28,948 nucleotides of DNA from Sulfurospirillum sp. (GTDB lineage Bacteria; Campylobacterota; Campylobacteria; Campylobacterales; Sulfurospirillaceae), in NCBI GenBank assembly GCA_045047115.1, contig JASFYR010000007.1, positions 1 through 28,948 of the forward strand, read 5' to 3'. The position numbers and the translations under genes are program-made. Below, in pieces: positions 2,926 through 24,054 of this stretch. Every line of letters starts with the position of its first letter. Position 1 is the stretch's first letter. The notes beneath the pieces were generated by a model. The model worked only from the letters and a program-made list of their open reading frames with translations, had not been told where the DNA came from and searched no databases.

Positions 2926-4146
2926 TCATAAAATTTTCTCTCCATTTATATAGATCTTTTCTGCTTTTTTTGTGTGCAATATAAGTTGTGTTGCTAAATC
3001 ATCACCAATCAATTTATTCGGTAGTTTTACAGCTAGTATATCGGCATCTTTGCCTGCTTCTAATACCCCATTGTTTAGGCCTAGTGCATTGGCCGCATTT
3101 ATTGTGCTCATTGAAATCAGTCTTTTTGAGAGTTTGTCTACGTCGGTTTTAAAGTGCATCATTAAAGCACCTCTCATCTCATCCCAAAGGCTAAGGGATA
3201 TGTTTGAACTTAATCCGTCAGTTGCAAGGTTTAGCATCTCTTTATCTATCTTTTCTATCTCTAATCTTCCCGAGTTTAAAAGGCGATTTGAGACAGGGCA
3301 GTGTGTTATAAAGCCATTTAACTCTTTTATCTTCTCTAGTTCTTCCTTGGTTGCTTTTGTGCAGTGTGTAAAGAGTGCAAAGGTATCGTGAAAAAGTTCA
3401 AGATACTCTAAAGCACTATTCAATGGTCTTGTATTTGGAGCAAAAGAGTTAAAAAACTTCACAAAATCTCCACTCCCGCTATCTAGCCACTTTCTTTCAG
3501 CCTGAGATTCCATAAAGTGTGTGGAGACTTGGTAGTCCTGATCCCTGGCAATATCAAGTACATTTTTTGTAAGTATCGGATGTGTAGAATAGGGTGAATG
3601 TACAGATATGGCGGGGATAAATTTTTCACTCCTCTTATCTTCGCTTTGATGCAGTCTTGACTTGAAATTATCAAAGAGAATATCTACCGCATCAGGGCTG
3701 GAGCCTAAGATTTCATTGAAATACACCACCTTTTGAGGAGTATTTATGCAAGGTTCAAAATCATCCCCAAAACTACTAATTTCCCCTAAAGTTGTTGTAC
3801 CGCTATGGAGCATATTTTTTAATTCTGCTTCTATGCATTTAGCTCCGCCGTTTTGCAATATATCTTCTCTGTTTTTTATAACACTGTTCAACCAAGGTAT
3901 AAAATTTCCATATTTAAGAGATGTTCTATTTGCGCTAAATTCTAAATGTACATGTGGATTTATAAGTCCGGGCATTAATACAGTATTTTTTCCATAATCA
4001 ATTATTTTTATATCTTTATATCTATTTTTAATCTCTTTTGCTTTTCCTATATCGATTATCTTTTTATCAAAACAGATAGCTCCATTTTCGATAATTTTAA
4101 AATCACCTCTACATGTAAGAATGAAATCAGCTTTAATTATCTTCAT
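2926..4146 (-). CDS. mqnF: Metal-dependent amidohydrolase, aminofutalosine deaminase family (futalosine menaquinone pathway)
   Basis: MPGLINPHVHLEFS (HxH), SVHSPYSTHP, THFMES, HCPVSN, ATDGLSSN; lies divergent from aroQ as in other Campylobacterota. Confidence 0.8.
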   Translation of the reverse strand: MKIIKADFILTCRGDFKIIENGAICFDKKIIDIGKAKEIKNRYKDIKIIDYGKNTVLMPGLINPHVHLEFSANRTSLKYGNFIPWLNSVIKNREDILQNGGAKCIEAELKNMLHSGTTTLGEISSFGDDFEPCINTPQKVVYFNEILGSSPDAVDILFDNFKSRLHQSEDKRSEKFIPAISVHSPYSTHPILTKNVLDIARDQDYQVSTHFMESQAERKWLDSGSGDFVKFFNSFAPNTRPLNSALEYLELFHDTFALFTHCTKATKEELEKIKELNGFITHCPVSNRLLNSGRLEIEKIDKEMLNLATDGLSSNISLSLWDEMRGALMMHFKTDVDKLSKRLISMSTINAANALGLNNGVLEAGKDADILAVKLPNKLIGDDLATQLILHTKKAEKIYINGEKIL

Positions 4147-4370: not shown

Positions 4371-4946
4371 TTAAAGAGTTATTTTTGTACCAAGCACACT
4401 TAAAAATTGGGCTATCCATGCAGGATGAGCCGGCCATGCAGGAGCAGTTACAAGGTTGCCGTCTGTAAAAGCATCTGTTATCTCTATGTCTTGATAAAAA
4501 CCACCGGCTTCTCTAACTTCCGGACCACAAGCAGGGTAGGCTGAACATTTTTTGTCTCTCAGCAGATTTGCGGCAGCGAGTATTTGTGCTCCGTGACAGA
4601 TGGCTGCTATCGGTTTGTTCGCATTGGCAAAATGCTCTACCAACTCTAAAACCCTCTCATCAAGTCTTAGGTACTCCGGTGCTCTGCCTCCTGGAATCAC
4701 AAGTGCATCAAAACTATCTAAATCCAAATCTTCAAAATCACCATTTAGAGTAAAATTATGACCAGGTTTTTCAGTATATGTCTGATCTCCCTCAAAGTCA
4801 TGTATAGCAGTTCTGACAAAGTCACCGGCTTTTTTATCAGGACATACAGCTACACTCTCATGGCCGACAGCTGCCAAAGCTTGAAAAGGCACCATAATCT
4901 CATAATCTTCTACAAAATCACCAATGATAAACAGTATCTTGCTCAT
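4371..4946 (-). CDS. pfpI: DJ-1/PfpI family protein (glyoxalase III/deglycase or intracellular protease-like)
   Basis: [37 protein letters not shown], nucleophile [17 protein letters not shown]; start at 4946 supported by GAGGAG RBS (4953-4958). Confidence 0.92.
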
Positions 4947-4972
4947 GTTAAACTCCTCGCTATTTTTATTTG

Positions 4973-4981
4973 AGTATATCA
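4973..4981 (-). promoter_or_regulatory. Extended -10 (TGaTATACT) for pfpI
   Basis: Minus-strand TGATATACT 26 nt upstream of the ATG. Confidence 0.55.
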
Positions 4982-5150
4982 CAATTCAGTAAATGGGCTC
5001 TAAATGTAATTTTTCAAAAGATACAGACCATCACAAATTTTTTCAATGAATTAGTGGAGTGATAATTTTGGATTAGTCTGTCCTTGCAACTAAGCAAACA
5101 GGAGGAATAAGCATAATCTAGAAATTTTAATAAAATATTTTACAACATAT

Positions 5151-13438: not shown

Positions 13439-13560
13439 TTATGAGAGATTAAATTTCTTGCAAACTATAAATTTTTTTAACAATAAAAACTCCTTTTGTA
13501 TTTAAATTTTTTATAGGAAAATAGTAGTAAAATATAGTCCTTAAAATTTGGAGTATGGAT

Positions 13561-15462
13561 ATGAAAATAGGGTTTAAAAATAAGATATATATTGCAGTCA
13601 GTTTTATGCTGATACTTAGTCTGCTTTCTAGTAATTTATTTAGTTATCTATCATCAAAAAATATAATCAAAAAAGATATTGAAACAAATCTCCAAAATTT
13701 GGCAAGTTCAAACTCAATGGCGATAAATATGTTTTTGTCTTTTAAGCAGGATGTTTTGAAAAATATGTCAAAAGACATAAAAAATCCTGACAATATTAGA
13801 GATAGCAAATTGATAAAAAAATTTAGAAATATTCAAAAAATTATGAAGGCAGATGATGTTTATGCAGGCTTTGAAGAGGATGGCAGATTTGTCAGCTCAT
13901 CACTTGCAAAAGTTCAAAATGGTTATGATCCAAGAAAACAGGCTTGGTATCAAGCAGTAAAGCAATCAAAAAGAGATATGATTTCAGATGTATATAAAAA
14001 TGAAACTACACATAATAAATCTTTTGCCTTTGTATCAAAAATGAAAAATAATGATAGTGATTTTATAGGTGTTTTAGCTTCGGTGTCGAATTTTAAAGAA
14101 CTTGATAAAATGCTAAAAGATATTAAAATAGAAGGCGGATACGCCTTTTTATTAAGTAGAAATTCCAAGTTGATATCTTATCCAAAAGCAAAATATATAG
14201 GAAAAAAGCTCTCTGAAATTAACAACTCTTTATCTAAACTTGAGAAAATAGTATCAAAAACAAATAAAGGTATATCAGAATACGAATATAATTCTAATGA
14301 AAATATAGTTGCCTTTGATACAATAAAAACTACAGGATGGAAGCTTGTTGTAGTAAAAAATAAAAAAGTTGCATATAAAGAGTTGAATGAGCAGTTGATA
14401 AAAAGCATAATTGTAACTATCTGTTTTACAATTATCGGAACTTTAATGATTATCTTCATGTTGGCAAGACTATTTATTCCAATAGAAAAGCTAAAAGAGA
14501 TGGTGAATGATTTAGCAACCAAGGATGCTAATTTGACTTCAAGAATTGAGACAAAAGGTGATGATATTTTAGCTCAAATTGGTAAAGGATTTAACCTTTT
14601 TATAGATAAAATTCAAAATCTTTTGATTGAGACCAAAAATGATAGCAATGAAAACTCTGCCATCTCTGAGGAATTGAGCACAACTGCATTGGAAGTTGGA
14701 AAAAGAGTAGATGAAGAGAGTATAACCATAAGTAAAATAAGTGAAAATGGAGAAAACTTACACTCAAAATTGAGTAATTCAGTAGATATTGCAAAGAAAG
14801 CAGGAGAATATCTAGAGCAATCTAATGGTGTACTTATGGATGTAAAAAAGGATATTAAAGCTCTACATGTAAAGCTTAATGAAACATCATCCAGAGATGT
14901 GGAATTAGCTGATAAATTAAACAAAACAAGTCAAAATACGGGTGAAATCAAAGAAGTTCTGGGTGTGATAAATGATATAGCAGACCAAACAAATCTTTTA
15001 GCACTAAATGCGGCCATAGAGGCAGCTCGCGCTGGAGAACATGGTAGAGGATTTGCTGTGGTGGCTGATGAGGTACGAAAACTAGCAGAAAAAACCCAAA
15101 AATCTCTAATAGAGATTAATTCTACGATAAATGTAGTAGTCCAATCTGTTCAAGAAGTCAGCCAAGAGATGGATAATTCATCAAAAGAGATTTTAGAAAT
15201 TTCATTAAATGGAGAGGCTTTAAATAAAAAAGTCGAAGAGACAGTAGAAAATATGCAAGAGACTACTTTGATCACAAAGCAGACTATCAGTGACTATCTT
15301 GGAGCTGCAGAAAGTTTGAAAAACATAGTAAATGATTTAAAGCATATAGATGAACTCTCAAGCACAAATGCAAGAAGTGTAGAGGAGCTTGCAAGCGCAA
15401 GCAAATATCTTAATACACTTACCGAGAAACTAAATTTCGAACTAAAAAGATACAATACTTAG
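13561..15462 (+). CDS. Methyl-accepting chemotaxis protein with periplasmic dCache sensor, HAMP and signalling domains
   Basis: Two TM segments, YDPRKQAWY Cache motif, [45 protein letters not shown] 7 nt before ATG 13561. Confidence 0.95.
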
Positions 15463-15971
15463 AAATTACTTATAAGTCTTAACTTGCCTTGATTATTTTG
15501 ATATGTGGTACTGATATAATCTTGATAGAATTCTTCAAAATGACTTTTTGCTCCATTTAAGCAGAGTTTAAAATATTTGGGATTTGGAAAAATAGTACTG
15601 TTTTGTTTACCATTTTTACCTATGTAGATAAAGCAGTTTTTAACTATTTTATCATTTGAATAGTATCTTACATATCCATCCTCTAGGTTTAGTCTGTCAT
15701 AGCCAATTTCTCTTTCATTCAGTTCTTTAAGTGAATTTTCAGATATGTTTTTAATGAGTAGCGCATTAAACCAGGATAAACTATCTGCTTCTATATTTAA
15801 AACAGCTCTGTTTATAGAATCTACTTTTCTTATGGATGGTTCTTGATTAAAAACTCTTTTAAAGTTTTTTACCTTTACAAACTCCACCATATCCATGTTT
15901 ATGCTATGTTTTTTAAGCTCTTTTGGATGCAGTAGACTACCATATACTATTTGGTTATAACTATTTTGCAT
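15459..15971 (-). CDS. Gamma-glutamylcyclotransferase-like (GGCT/AIG2 fold) protein
   Basis: N-terminal [31 protein letters not shown]; 4-nt convergent stop overlap with the MCP. Confidence 0.7.
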
Positions 15972-16255
15972 GGTTTAAAGATTTGATCCAGCTTGTGATA
16001 CTCTCCAATTCAGTATCTGTAAAGTATAAAAACTCAGGCATTATATTTTGAGTATTTGCCTTGAGATCCTCTTTTTATACTCTCTTTTATGCGTACTTTT
16101 TTGGCAGATTTTGCTATATCTACAAAGGCAGGTGCAGTCCGGCCTTTTTTTATGCCGTGACACTCCATGCAACCGTATTGATTGACAATATTTTCACCGG
16201 ACATTGCCAGTGAAAAATTGTATATTATGCTAATTAAAATTAATATCTTTTTCAT
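15961..16255 (-). pseudogene. Frameshifted monoheme class I cytochrome c
   Basis: Signal peptide MKKILILISII, CMECH, APAF; frame stops at 16034, but the missing C-terminus [26 protein letters not shown] (16041-15961) lies in the next frame; removing one base near 16046-16049 gives a 97-aa protein. Confidence 0.82.
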
Positions 16256-16392
16256 TGTTGTTTCCAAAAAAAATATTTTGGAATTATAATACAATTAACC
16301 AAAATATGTTTTTAAGTCCTTATTTAGTAAAATATCATCACTATAATATAGTGTACAAGGCCAACTAAAATCTTCCAAAGGAAAAATATATC

Positions 16393-19122: not shown

Positions 19123-19689
19123 ATGCGTTGCCAGCTCTGTTTAAATTTTAGTTGGCAACCAATTTGCAAAAATTGTCTAAAATTATTTTTGATTCCCACT
19201 TTACATAAAAGGGTACTCGAAGATGGTTTGGTGGTTTACTCTTTCTACGGATATAGTGAAATCTCAAAATTACTACATACAAAACACACCTATATGGGTG
19301 CTAAAATCTTTATGCAGCTAAGTCAATACGCTATTTTACCCTTTGTGGAGCAATTCAAAGACAAAAATATTTTTGCTCTGCCGATTGATGATCATGTGAG
19401 GAGTGGTTATTCGCACTCTGCTGTGCTGGCAAAAGGAATCAGCAGGCACATAAAACCATTATACAGATCACTAAGAGCAAAAAATAAGGTAAGATATTCA
19501 GGTCAAAAAAAGGCTCTAAGGCAGAGCCAAAAGAGAAACTTTAAGCTTGCATGTAGAGGCGGCATAAATGCTGTACTTATAGACGACATAGTAACAACAG
19601 GAAATACCCTGATGGAAGCTAAGAAAATATGCGAACAAGGAGATATAAACATACTCTTTGCCATAACCCTGGCAGATGCCCGAGAATAA
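19123..19689 (+). CDS. comF: ComF/CtsW-family phosphoribosyltransferase (natural transformation)
   Basis: N-terminal CxxC..CxxC zinc finger, GYSHSAVLA, PRT loop LIDDIVTTGNTL; located between lepA and gyrA. Confidence 0.88.
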   Translation: MRCQLCLNFSWQPICKNCLKLFLIPTLHKRVLEDGLVVYSFYGYSEISKLLHTKHTYMGAKIFMQLSQYAILPFVEQFKDKNIFALPIDDHVRSGYSHSAVLAKGISRHIKPLYRSLRAKNKVRYSGQKKALRQSQKRNFKLACRGGINAVLIDDIVTTGNTLMEAKKICEQGDINILFAITLADARE

Positions 19690-19719
19690 AAAAGAAAAAA
19701 GAAGAAAAAAAGAAAAAAG
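19688..19719 (+). repeat. Purine-only tract of A6G-type units abutting the left TIR
   Basis: AAAAAAG AAAAAAG AAG AAAAAAAG AAAAAAG; the last G is the first base of the TIR. Confidence 0.85.
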
Positions 19720-19746
19720 GGGTCAGGGTTAAACTTTAAACTTTTT
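19719..19746 (+). repeat. Left terminal inverted repeat
   Basis: GGGGTCAGGGTTAAACTTTAAACTTTTT, exact reverse complement of 20526-20553. Confidence 0.97.
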
Positions 19747-19747
19747 A

Positions 19748-19756
19748 TGTTAAAAT
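19748..19756 (+). promoter_or_regulatory. Extended -10 (TGtTAAAAT) for the transposase, abutting the left TIR
   Basis: TGTTAAAAT 22 nt upstream of ATG 19779; AGAGGT RBS at 19768-19773. Confidence 0.65.
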
Positions 19757-19778
19757 GTATAAAAAACAGAGGTATATT

Positions 19779-20543
19779 ATGTCAAGAAGAGCCAGAGTAT
19801 CTATTTGTGGTTATCATCATGTTTATAATCGTGGTGTTGCAAGAAACAAGATCTTTCTCAATGATTCTGATAAAGAGAAGTTTTTAGAGTTGTTGGCTGA
19901 AGTTTCAAGAGAATATAAGTTTAATATTCACTCATTTTGCCTGATGAACAACCACTACCATCTTCTAATAGAAAATAAAAAAGAGAATTTATCTGATGGT
20001 ATGAGGCAGTTAAATGCAAAATATGCCACCTATTTTAATCATAAGTACAAAAGAATCGGTCATCTTTGGCAAGATAGATTTAAGTCTTGGTATATTGCAA
20101 ATGAGGACTATCTCTTCATCCTTTTTAAATACATAGAAGCAAATCCCATTAAAGCAAACTTAGCAAAAAGAGTGGGTGAATATAGATACAGTGCAACTTA
20201 TAGCATTCTTAAAGACGGTGTTCCCTCTTTTTTGCGAAATTCATTTGTATTGCGTGATTATCATACTCAAGAACTTTTTGAAGCACTCAATATACCTTTA
20301 GGAAAGCAAGAGATAGAGAGTCTTGAAAAACTAAAAAAAATCAAATATAAATCAGATGATAAAAAAATAGTAAGAGAGCGAGTAAGTATGGATGATATAT
20401 TTATAGGTATAGATGACAGGCAAGAGAGAAACAGAGCAATACAGAAAGCCTATGAAGAAGACTATACAAAAAGTGAAATTGCAAGAAAACTCAATCTAAG
20501 TGCCACTGCGATAGGAAAAATCATAAAAAAGTTTAAAGTTTAA
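19779..20543 (+). CDS. RAYT-like Y1 HUH transposase with C-terminal helix-turn-helix (254 aa)
   Basis: YHHVYNRG, HUH motif LMNNHYHLL, GHLWQDRFKS, catalytic Tyr in YIEANP, YRYSA, C-terminal YTKSEIARKLNLSATAIGKIIKK. Confidence 0.92.
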   Translation: MSRRARVSICGYHHVYNRGVARNKIFLNDSDKEKFLELLAEVSREYKFNIHSFCLMNNHYHLLIENKKENLSDGMRQLNAKYATYFNHKYKRIGHLWQDRFKSWYIANEDYLFILFKYIEANPIKANLAKRVGEYRYSATYSILKDGVPSFLRNSFVLRDYHTQELFEALNIPLGKQEIESLEKLKKIKYKSDDKKIVRERVSMDDIFIGIDDRQERNRAIQKAYEEDYTKSEIARKLNLSATAIGKIIKKFKV

Positions 20544-20553
20544 CCCTGACCCC
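20526..20553 (-). repeat. Right terminal inverted repeat, overlapping last codons and stop of the transposase
   Basis: AAAAAGTTTAAAGTTTAACCCTGACCCC; contains TAA stop 20541-20543. Confidence 0.97.
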
Positions 20554-20583
20554 TATAAGGATTTCTGACCCCTATAAGGATTT
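20546..20583 (+). repeat. Exact 19-bp tandem duplication spanning the right element junction
   Basis: CTGACCCCTATAAGGATTT at 20546-20564 and 20565-20583. Confidence 0.97.
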
Positions 20584-20597
20584 AATGTTTATTTGGA

Positions 20598-20603
20598 TAA
20601 AAT
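20598..20603 (+). promoter_or_regulatory. Candidate -10 (TAAAAT) for gyrA
   Basis: TGGA-TAAAAT 31 nt upstream of the ATG; AGAGGG RBS follows. Confidence 0.5.
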
Positions 20604-23129: not shown

Positions 23130-23146
23130 TGGAATAGGAGTTGCTT
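23130..23146 (+). promoter_or_regulatory. Sigma-54 (-24/-12) promoter upstream of flgP
   Basis: TGGAATAGGAGTTGCTT: GG (23131-32) and GC (23143-44) separated by exactly 10 nt. Confidence 0.75.
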
Positions 23147-23176
23147 ATATATTTAAAATTTTTTAAAAGGTGCGTT

Positions 23177-23689
23177 ATGAAGAAAATTGTCTATATGGTT
23201 ACAGTTAGCATAGGAGCATTATTGGTATTTTCGGGTTGTAATGGCATGGTGCCACAAGCTCAATCCCAAAAGCCAAAGGTTATCGAGAAGGTGATTATTC
23301 AAAAGGTCAGCAAAGAACAAGTTGCACAGATTATCAGAGATGAAAAATTGATAAAGATTAATTCTATGCCTCAAAAGCAGTTTGTGGTTTATGGAGAGGG
23401 AATAGCGCCTATGAATACAATCTCACCCGCTCAAGCGATAGCGCTTGCAAAAAGAGCGGCTGTCACCGATGCTTACCGTCAATTGGGTGAAAAACTATAT
23501 GGAATCAGAGTAAATGCCAAAGAGACAGTTAAAGACGCAGCTCTTAAGGACTCCCGTATAGTAACTCAGGTAAATGGATTGATTAAAAATGCAACTATAA
23601 CCGAATCAAAATACAAAGATGGTCTTTTTACTGTCAGAATGGAATTAAACATGAACGGAGCCAGGTGGAAAGAAATTTTCTCCTACTAA
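23177..23689 (+). CDS. flgP: Flagellar basal-disk lipoprotein FlgP (LPP20 family)
   Basis: Lipobox VFSGC; GEGIAP, AKRAAVTDAYRQLGEKLYGIRVNAKETVKD; gyrA-flgP-flgQ-flgR-asd synteny. Confidence 0.88.
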   Translation: MKKIVYMVTVSIGALLVFSGCNGMVPQAQSQKPKVIEKVIIQKVSKEQVAQIIRDEKLIKINSMPQKQFVVYGEGIAPMNTISPAQAIALAKRAAVTDAYRQLGEKLYGIRVNAKETVKDAALKDSRIVTQVNGLIKNATITESKYKDGLFTVRMELNMNGARWKEIFSY

Positions 23690-24054
23690 CTCTGCTTTTA
23701 AGTCTAACATGCGGAAGTGACACTTTTTGGTTTTCATATAGAAGTGTCACTTTAAACAAAACATTGATATATGAGCAGAAGCATATATCTCCGCTTACTG
23801 TTCCGTATTCTGGAAAAAGTGTCTCTACATGTAGAATAAAGATAGAGGACAAAAAGTGTAATTCCAAGCTAAATTGCTTAAATTTGAACTTCTATAAAAT
23901 TTTGCCCTGTTTCTATAAATCAACCGCCAAGATAACCTCTCAAAGCCAAGTTACGCTTAAGGGTATAAAGGATGAGACAGAGCTTATAATAGTTCCAACC
24001 AGATTTATAGTAGATTTTAAAGATGATTTTGCTAATATAACTATCCTTAAATAA
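23665..24054 (+). CDS. flgQ: Secreted motility protein FlgQ
   Basis: Signal peptide, FWFSYR, cysteines, PTRFIVDFKDDFA; sits between flgP and flgR. Confidence 0.7.
   Translation: MERNFLLLTLLLSLTCGSDTFWFSYRSVTLNKTLIYEQKHISPLTVPYSGKSVSTCRIKIEDKKCNSKLNCLNLNFYKILPCFYKSTAKITSQSQVTLKGIKDETELIIVPTRFIVDFKDDFANITILK

Follow-up and report, generated by a model that had tools for sequence, protein, structure and literature searches.

Architecture of the locus

The window, that is the whole stretch of 28,948 nucleotides of a Sulfurospirillum genome (G000) that was analysed, carries a TIRYT gene of the Y1 HUH type enclosed by terminal inverted repeats (Table 1). Its left neighbour is taken to be comF, the name given by an earlier reader, and a comF-like gene also lies left of the variable region in relatives. 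The right neighbour is named gyrA by recognition of its sequence. The inverted repeat is exact over 29 nt (19718-19746 / 20526-20554), corresponding to 28 nt plus the flanking A/T, and one indel in a T run lengthens it to about 31. A list of 47 pairs was made for the 28,948-nt window, and of its 25 longest only the 28-bp repeat is 100% identical. The last TIRYT residues and the stop codon are encoded by the right repeat, and the duplicated unit at the right tip combines 8 nt from the outer edge of the repeat with 11 flanking nt and has no microhomology at its junction. The flanks of the element are not direct repeats, no tnpB-sized ORF adjoins the TIRYT gene in the ORF list, and single-stranded ends show no folding (z -0.08 to 1.69). 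The exact repeats, the non-repeat flanks and the lack of tnpB and of REP hairpins had been described in the earlier note, and the repeat search, the flank check, the ORF list and the folding all bear out that description. It did not mention the exact duplication at the right tip, the nested duplications of the left flank or the overlap of the right repeat with the gene end. Rfam gave no match anywhere in the window (1-28948); a hairpin or RNA role of the ends was rejected on this result and the lack of folding.

Table 1. Features of the gyrA-linked element and its flanks, in window coordinates.
Feature	Position	Strand	Remarks
comF-like gene, phosphoribosyltransferase fold	19123..19689	+	left neighbour; Pribosyltran E 7e-4
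A-rich left flank, nested 7-8-nt tandem duplications up to the repeat tip	19690..19718	.	
Left terminal inverted repeat, 28 bp, begins GGGGTCAG	19719..19746	+	
Extended -10-like motif TG-n-TAAAAT, just inside the left repeat	19748..19756	+	putative promoter of the TIRYT gene
TIRYT gene, 254 aa	19779..20543	+	ORF list, profile search, alignment, structure model
HUH H59/H61 codons	19953-19961	+	within the TIRYT gene
Y118 codon, predicted catalytic	20130-20132	+	within the TIRYT gene
C-terminal HTH of TIRYT	about 20418-20537	+	
Right terminal inverted repeat, 28 bp	20526..20553	-	
Exact 19-nt tandem duplication at the right tip	20546..20583 (20546-20564 / 20565-20583)	+	
-10-like hexamer of the putative gyrA promoter	20598..20603	+	
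gyrA, 830 aa	20635..23127	+	fixed right neighbour; ORF and neighbour comparison in relatives

TGnTAnAAT-like motifs are found by eye in relatives at the same place as the extended -10-like motif. Because this motif lies directly inside the repeat, the left repeat would cover the -35 region of the TIRYT gene. The motif is absent from the four sites returned by a generic promoter scan, and since that scan gave 4 sites against 5.2 expected, the promoter calls are taken from comparison only. The other window genes are ordinary where scanned (an MCP with a Cache domain at 13555-15462, an amidohydrolase at 2926-4146 and a DJ-1/PfpI gene at 4371-4982), and the ORFs at 15459-15971, 16034-16294, 23141-23689 and 23665-24054 have no Pfam match.

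The enzyme and its class

The ATG at 19779 gives a protein of 254 aa. An alternative start at 19755 (262 aa) is unused by the homologues, which begin MxR. The motifs NHYH (residues 58-61), WQ (97-98) and YIEANP (118-123) are present, with an HUH-to-Y spacing of 57-59 residues, and His59, His61, Tyr118 and Pro123 are invariant in 57 of 57 aligned sequences. Pfam Y1_Tnp matches with an E value of 1e-16. HTH families match residues 214-253 weakly (E 0.002-0.03, all under the Pfam cut-offs), and the AlphaFold model (57 aligned sequences, mean pLDDT 89) has C-terminal helices at 214-226, 231-238 and 242-253. The earlier reading of a 254-aa ORF with HYH, YIEANP and a C-terminal HTH is borne out by these matches and by the three-helix model. 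The best solved structural match of the model is TnpAREP (PDB entry 4ER8, E 6.5e-8). The NCBIfam RAYT model NF047646 scores 78.2 bits, under its cut-off of 80, and the IS200 model 28.2 bits. Named homologues come from Sulfurospirillum and relatives, which makes Sulfurospirillaceae the likely host family.

Di Nocera, De Gregorio and Rocco (2013; PMC3733652) named TIRtrons, with enzymes called TIRYT, a GGGGWSAS motif in the repeats and end sequences that also lie scattered, alone, in dimers or in groups. Quentin et al. (2018; PMC6006769) equated TIRYT with TnpAY1 subclass 2.1, for which they describe NH[YF]H, W[EQ] and YIELNP-like motifs, a C-terminal HTH and a median length of 238 aa. This subclass is the second-largest Y1 HUH group, found in 14.9% of strains and prevalent in epsilon-proteobacteria (PMC6006769). 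The class with GGGGWSAS ends that the earlier note had named is in print and equals subclass 2.1. Like the TIRtrons of PMC3733652, the element here has a RAYT-like Y1 gene, with HUH and Tyr, between inverted repeats that are not REPs, that carry GGGGWSAS in GGGGTCAG and that overlap the gene end; its end sequences are also dispersed. With subclass 2.1, alias RAYT group 1, it has in common a length of about 240-250 aa, NH[YF]H (here NHYH), W[EQ] (WQ), YIExNP (YIEANP), an uninterrupted core, the lack of REP hairpins, few divergent copies per genome and prevalence in epsilon-proteobacteria (PMC6006769, PMC5581495). The C-terminal HTH of the subclass is represented by the sub-cut-off Pfam matches and the modelled helices. 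Every subclass 2.1 feature that was tested is present in the sequence, the assignment being made from published feature descriptions. Judged by its sequence, the element is a real and intact TIRtron, a member of a known and named class.

Residence upstream of gyrA

At a clade threshold of at least 54% protein identity, the TIRYT clade is present in 43 of 61 Sulfurospirillaceae genomes examined, in 41 of them as one copy; the genome of this window has a single copy. The fetched loci hold 44 distinct proteins, 38 of which lie upstream of gyrA in the same orientation, one is inverted (G005, an 85%-complete draft genome) and five have no gyrA match in the locus. The gyrA-linked proteins span five genera with 54-79% identity. 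In one of the 38 (G009), 9.8 kb lie between the element and gyrA and end in a second co-oriented end. The distance from the right tip to a TANAAT hexamer before gyrA is 24-25 nt in 38 of the 45 loci having an end. Here the duplicated tip keeps a distance of 25 nt to the hexamer, and the full repeat, pushed away by the 19-nt duplication, is at 44 nt. The spacing would mostly be that imposed by a -35/-10 promoter. Sixteen gyrA upstream regions in the fetched loci have no end.

Trees of the enzyme and of gyrA (29 of 34 taxa) are in broad agreement, with a patristic correlation of 0.83, and recover the same-genus and g3 groups. Only 7 of 26 splits are common and three within-genus conflicts are well supported, which points to some replacement or recombination. 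The TIRYT gene is under purifying selection, with a median dN/dS of 0.11 in 26 unsaturated pairs. In 33 elements, the two ends of one element differ by 0.6 mismatches per 27 nt and ends of different genomes by about 3.0; the left and right ends of each element evolve together. Dispersed ends follow the end variant of the local element, and the end motif has no match in G007, G012 and G013, three same-genus genomes without the clade.

The proposal that an autonomous insertion sequence recently jumped between comF and gyrA could draw on the intact gene and perfect ends, the gyrA upstream regions without an end and the varying loci of paralogues. It is highly improbable given the one copy here, the same site in most of the family at such divergence, the low dN/dS and a GC content of 31.7% (34.8% for the genome); and among 72,556 plasmid records only four partial matches were found, none covering 80% of the protein. 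Copy number, shared locus and trees already largely refute it. The words "probably recently active" of the earlier note, if they mean a recent move of the gene, do not stand, since the gene is single-copy and lies upstream of gyrA across five genera. That note had also named, as grounds for refuting its reading, a gene fixed at this locus throughout the genus with decayed ends. Half of this is borne out: the residence is found, even family-wide, but the ends are homogenised. The alignment of the comF-gyrA region of relatives, by which it hoped to define the empty site, gave no clean empty site. In relatives without the element, the gyrA promoter is kept but the sequence before it is different, and comF is separated from the element or gyrA by unrelated genes over 0.6-28 kb, so no insertion junction is readable. 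Viral contigs gave one end match. Among 301 genomes of the order, a continuous element-plus-gyrA match was found in this family only, at a strict threshold that missed known carriers. A long-resident element resembling a domesticated RAYT, not a fresh insertion, fits the data when compared with PMC5581495. In that paper (Bertels et al. 2017), RAYT group 1, the equivalent of subclass 2.1, is described as the most mobile RAYT group, with 6.2% duplicated and some on plasmids, whereas the clade here behaves as a resident gene.

In the complete genome G049 (C1:338460-339173), the gyrA-clade enzyme gene is apparently truncated by stops near residue 237 and both ends are kept. In G004 (C170:765-1481; L095), comF is immediately followed by another TIRYT paralogue (40%), so the comF region has been colonised more than once.

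Dispersed ends and mini-elements

The scan of G000 for further copies of the end sequence, which the earlier note had proposed, was fruitful. Eleven ends of this family were found: two at gyrA, those of three fused-end minis (56-61 nt) and three solo ends; one mini is apparently split over two contig ends (C10/C31). Ends of at least four further families are present in the same genome, as is a second, divergent TIRtron on C3. The full end set, drawn from genomes and metagenome contigs, comprises 376 raw and 214 dereplicated ends. The latter are 140 solo ends (including ends of 125-175-nt MITEs), 41 ends flanking an enzyme gene, 29 mini ends and 4 touching contig ends. No target duplication was found in 23 minis/MITEs or in 29 gene-size elements. 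Offset target duplications were also considered and rejected, the longest common word being 5.2 nt against 5.0 in mismatched pairs. For two minis, empty sites were sought in relatives of 72-86% identity, whose intergenic gaps contain other hairpins or toxin-antitoxin modules, and a target duplication could not be established. Empty sites in genus g3 gave no informative junction. The priA-ispG site holds a TIRtron mini in G000 and G002; in G001:C142, G003:C37 and G004:C18 (L377, L376, L374) its place is taken by a palindrome of about 120 nt with long inverted arms, unrelated to the mini.

The second TIRtron of G000 (C3:14274-15084; L353:1774-2586) encodes 215 aa, is 41% identical over the core and has GGGGACAGG ends. 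Long stacks of nested tip duplications lie on both of its sides, with ParE/YoeB genes adjoining. Solo ends of the GGGGTCAGGGACC family in G000 (C21:32561-32660 and C34:27040-27140; L351, L352) have three to four stacked tip duplications, and an enzyme gene with GGGGTCAGGGACC ends was not found in the G000 assembly. In several records, MITEs of 125-175 nt with ends of the gyrA-linked family have related internal sequences (L179, L191, L215, L229, L306, L330). In G016 (C35:81-1470; L161), a Fic/DUF4172 gene lies between inverted ends of the local family, possibly a non-autonomous composite element. A perfect palindrome with 3458-nt arms and a mini at its centre is found in G006 (C44:3000-10000; L552) and reaches the edge of the fetched stretch. 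It is probably an assembly artefact, possibly an inverted duplication.

Duplications at the tips

Perfect tandem duplications of at least 7 nt, with the inner end allowed at -1 to +13 of the repeat, are found at 33 of the 214 dereplicated ends; among these, dereplication left one site counted twice, and another two form a single cluster. This is far above chance: 100 shuffles, with composition and the last five bases of the flank preserved, give 0.5 ± 0.7, pseudo-tips 12 in 3148 and a 30-nt shift two. The boundaries are clustered. In the 19 junctions without microhomology, the inner end is at +1 (9), +8 (5), +2 (2), +7 (2) or +4 (1). The outer start is mostly 6-7 nt outside the repeat; 9 of 21 start at -6, others tail off as far as -12, and this edge is sharp at -6/-7 for inner ends +1 and +8 alike. 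The smallest duplicated unit is 7 nt. A perfect duplication is lacking at 181 of the 214 ends, and G000 is unusually rich (6 of 11). When 401 genomes of the phylum were searched with a pattern for duplicated tips, 20 of them yielded 35 matches, the reversed control yielding 7, and 24 of the 28 inspected matches have a duplicated flank. With seven end families pooled, 58 of 326 ends have a tip duplication, though the choice of some of these ends by a pattern of this kind skews the set towards +7/+8.

Our preferred explanation, that the duplications are scars of nicking by the resident enzyme, has to be weighed against three others. The first is that host replication slips at the A-rich flank beside the G run or a bound protein, with no enzyme nick. 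The flanks are indeed A/T-rich at -1 to -4, and 14 of the 33 duplications have microhomology or several copies. Slippage is nonetheless quite improbable, since the composition-keeping shuffles do not come near 33, the 19 remaining junctions have no microhomology and the inner ends cluster at two positions seven bases apart.

The second is an artefact of assembly around palindromic repeats. Most genomes are drafts, contigs break inside minis (G000 C10/C31) and the 3458-nt palindrome is centred on a mini in one G006 contig. Yet the same end is found without (G046) and with (G045) a 17-nt duplication in two complete single-contig genomes, a before/after pair; the same tip duplication recurs in separate records; and solo ends, which do not fold, carry such duplications too. 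This origin is extremely improbable.

The third involves cutting at two places, either a staggered two-strand cut (at about -6/-7 on the entering strand and +1 or +8 on the other) or two cuts on one strand, with fill-in and rejoining. It would account for an outer boundary that is fixed at -6/-7 independent of the inner one and for the 7-nt minimum, and a two-nick model was already proposed for TnpAREP amplification (PMC3333891). Against it, the outer boundary has no consensus beyond A/T, and a stagger predicts target duplications around minis, found in 0 of 23, though these copies are old and common to several species. We regard double cutting as possible, though unlikely.

A model for the resident enzyme

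The reading that we favour is that of a resident TIRtron whose HUH enzyme likely binds its own end and nicks the tip, the tip duplications being likely scars of nicking, fill-in and rejoining. We consider it probable, with some reservation, each step being drawn from footprints. The HTH would hold the protein on the double-stranded repeat, which from its position appears to cover its own promoter, so that autorepression may result. The HUH domain would then nick the element-leaving strand at CC^CT, 1 or 8 nt inside the tip, and CC^CT is present twice in the end, at +1 and +8. After the nick, the element side would end in a 3'-OH, with the enzyme attached to the strand made of tip plus flank. 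A host polymerase would extend the 3'-OH outward, usually to 6-7 nt past the tip, and the extended new end would attack the phosphotyrosine, with one copy added. IS608-type excision is same-strand. With inverted ends, the two nicks would be on opposite strands and same-strand excision would be unavailable, so that inversion and conversion of one end by the other would be the sole reactions left to the gene. Its residence, flipping and homogenised ends would be explained in this way. Lone ends and minis would be spread in trans, again with no target duplication.

Cleavage by HUH enzymes yields a 5'-phosphotyrosine and a 3'-OH (PMC3333891, PMC8266576). For TnpAREP of E. coli, addition of units by nicking, priming and rejoining has been proposed, together with a two-nick version (PMC3333891). 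The characterised RAYTs of PMC8266576 cut at C^T or C^A. Such cuts would place the endpoints at 0 and +7, a base away from the observed modes. A single nick does not explain the sharp -6/-7 outer edge well. The nick near CTGACCCC that the earlier note had predicted is indirectly backed by tip duplications ending at +1 and +8 of the repeat. By eye, the residues of the recognition helix show no clear tracking of the end variants.

Several known systems can be compared with the element. REPtrons, with TnpAREP of groups 2/3 in E. coli, S. maltophilia and Marinomonas (PMC3333891, PMC8266576), likewise have a domesticated single-copy HUH gene and dispersed non-autonomous repeats matching the local gene, and 4ER8 is the closest fold. 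Unlike REPtrons, the element has no GTAG-tagged hairpin; its ends are non-folding, the enzyme has an extra HTH and scores below the NF047646 cut-off, and the footprints lie one base from C^T. IS200/IS605 TnpA (IS608, ISDra2) shares the Y1 HUH fold and the lack of target duplication; unlike it, the element has symmetric inverted ends and a single resident copy. An assignment to IS200/IS605 was rejected, since subterminal hairpins, YxxxQ, tnpB, a short core-only protein and many near-identical copies were not found. A DDE insertion sequence with terminal inverted repeats was rejected because of the HUH fold and the lack of target duplication in 52 elements. No mechanism, tip duplications, family-wide fixed locus or toxin-antitoxin link was found in the description of TIRtrons in PMC3733652.

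Our literature search, with subscription papers outside its scope, found no TIRYT mechanism beyond the papers cited, no paper on tip duplications or gyrA residence of TIRtrons and none linking TIRYT ends to cassettes; the literature found reports no biochemistry for subclass 2.1. The host benefit of domesticated RAYTs is named as an open question in PMC5581495. The chemistry of the enzyme is directly testable, thanks to its family-wide residence at gyrA, the joint evolution of the ends and the mapped tip duplications. The locus offers a defined substrate of a 28-bp end plus flank, with predicted nick coordinates at +1/+8 inside and -6/-7 outside, as well as natural end variants travelling with their enzyme, an inverted allele and a before/after pair. 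The host family includes named cultured Sulfurospirillum species. If true, an HTH-steered HUH enzyme that rejoins DNA at a non-hairpin site would extend the known HUH chemistry.

Toxin-antitoxin genes at the ends

Some co-oriented ends lie beside toxin-antitoxin genes. A reading that can hold together with the nick scars is that the sedentary enzyme acts in trans on co-oriented ends and excises, amplifies and replaces small, mostly toxin-antitoxin cassettes, much as an integron does. Pfam scans of 108 small neighbours of solo ends show a toxin-antitoxin gene adjoining 20 of the 140 solo ends (13 loci), and the other 120 have no recognised one. Co-oriented ends enclose PemK/Phd in G000 and RelE in G001 at one orthologous site. 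G003 holds three 96-98% identical end-plus-YafQ/Phd units, as well as a TIRYT paralogue between co-oriented ends, and eight co-oriented ends of other families punctuate a toxin-antitoxin cluster on C8 of G000. Four of the six co-oriented pairs at least 400 nt apart enclose toxin-antitoxin genes, yet for 113 of the 140 solo ends the 1.5 kb on the inner side contain no further end. In G000, 9 of 43 core words lie at most 700 nt from the 17 toxin-antitoxin hits (1.0% of the genome), against 0 of 28-55 for three control words; this enrichment comes from 3-4 loci, and 7 of 11 toxin-antitoxin loci have no nearby end. Further evidence against the cassette reading is that at the priA-ispG site five relatives carry different modules without ends of this family and that the module replacement between G045 and G046 has one boundary only at an end. 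The data would equally suit ends and modules that both gather at variable sites, or addictive modules that selectively survive between direct repeats prone to deletion, and overall we find cassette exchange unlikely.

Integrons have a tyrosine recombinase, IntI, and folded attC sites, neither of which is found here. The element shares with them a sedentary enzyme gene and, at some loci, co-oriented sites punctuating toxin-antitoxin modules. Unlike integrons, it has an HUH enzyme and no attC-like hairpins at solo ends, and most ends bracket nothing. It is distinctly doubtful that TIRYT is an HUH counterpart of the integron, in which toxin-antitoxin cassettes would be swapped as single strands, tip duplications would be abortive products and the right end, which in most of the family lies just before the gyrA -35 position, may let the protein tune gyrase expression.

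Two toxin-antitoxin regions merit description. In G003 (C20:172500-175300; L484), and also in G002:C31 and G011:C50, a TIRYT paralogue (38-39%) lies between co-oriented ends within a toxin-antitoxin array, and a motif search found no matching inverted right end for it. In G000 (C8:132075-137812; L354), about five toxin-antitoxin modules and an AAA gene lie beside manC, punctuated by the eight co-oriented ends, which belong to two other end families.
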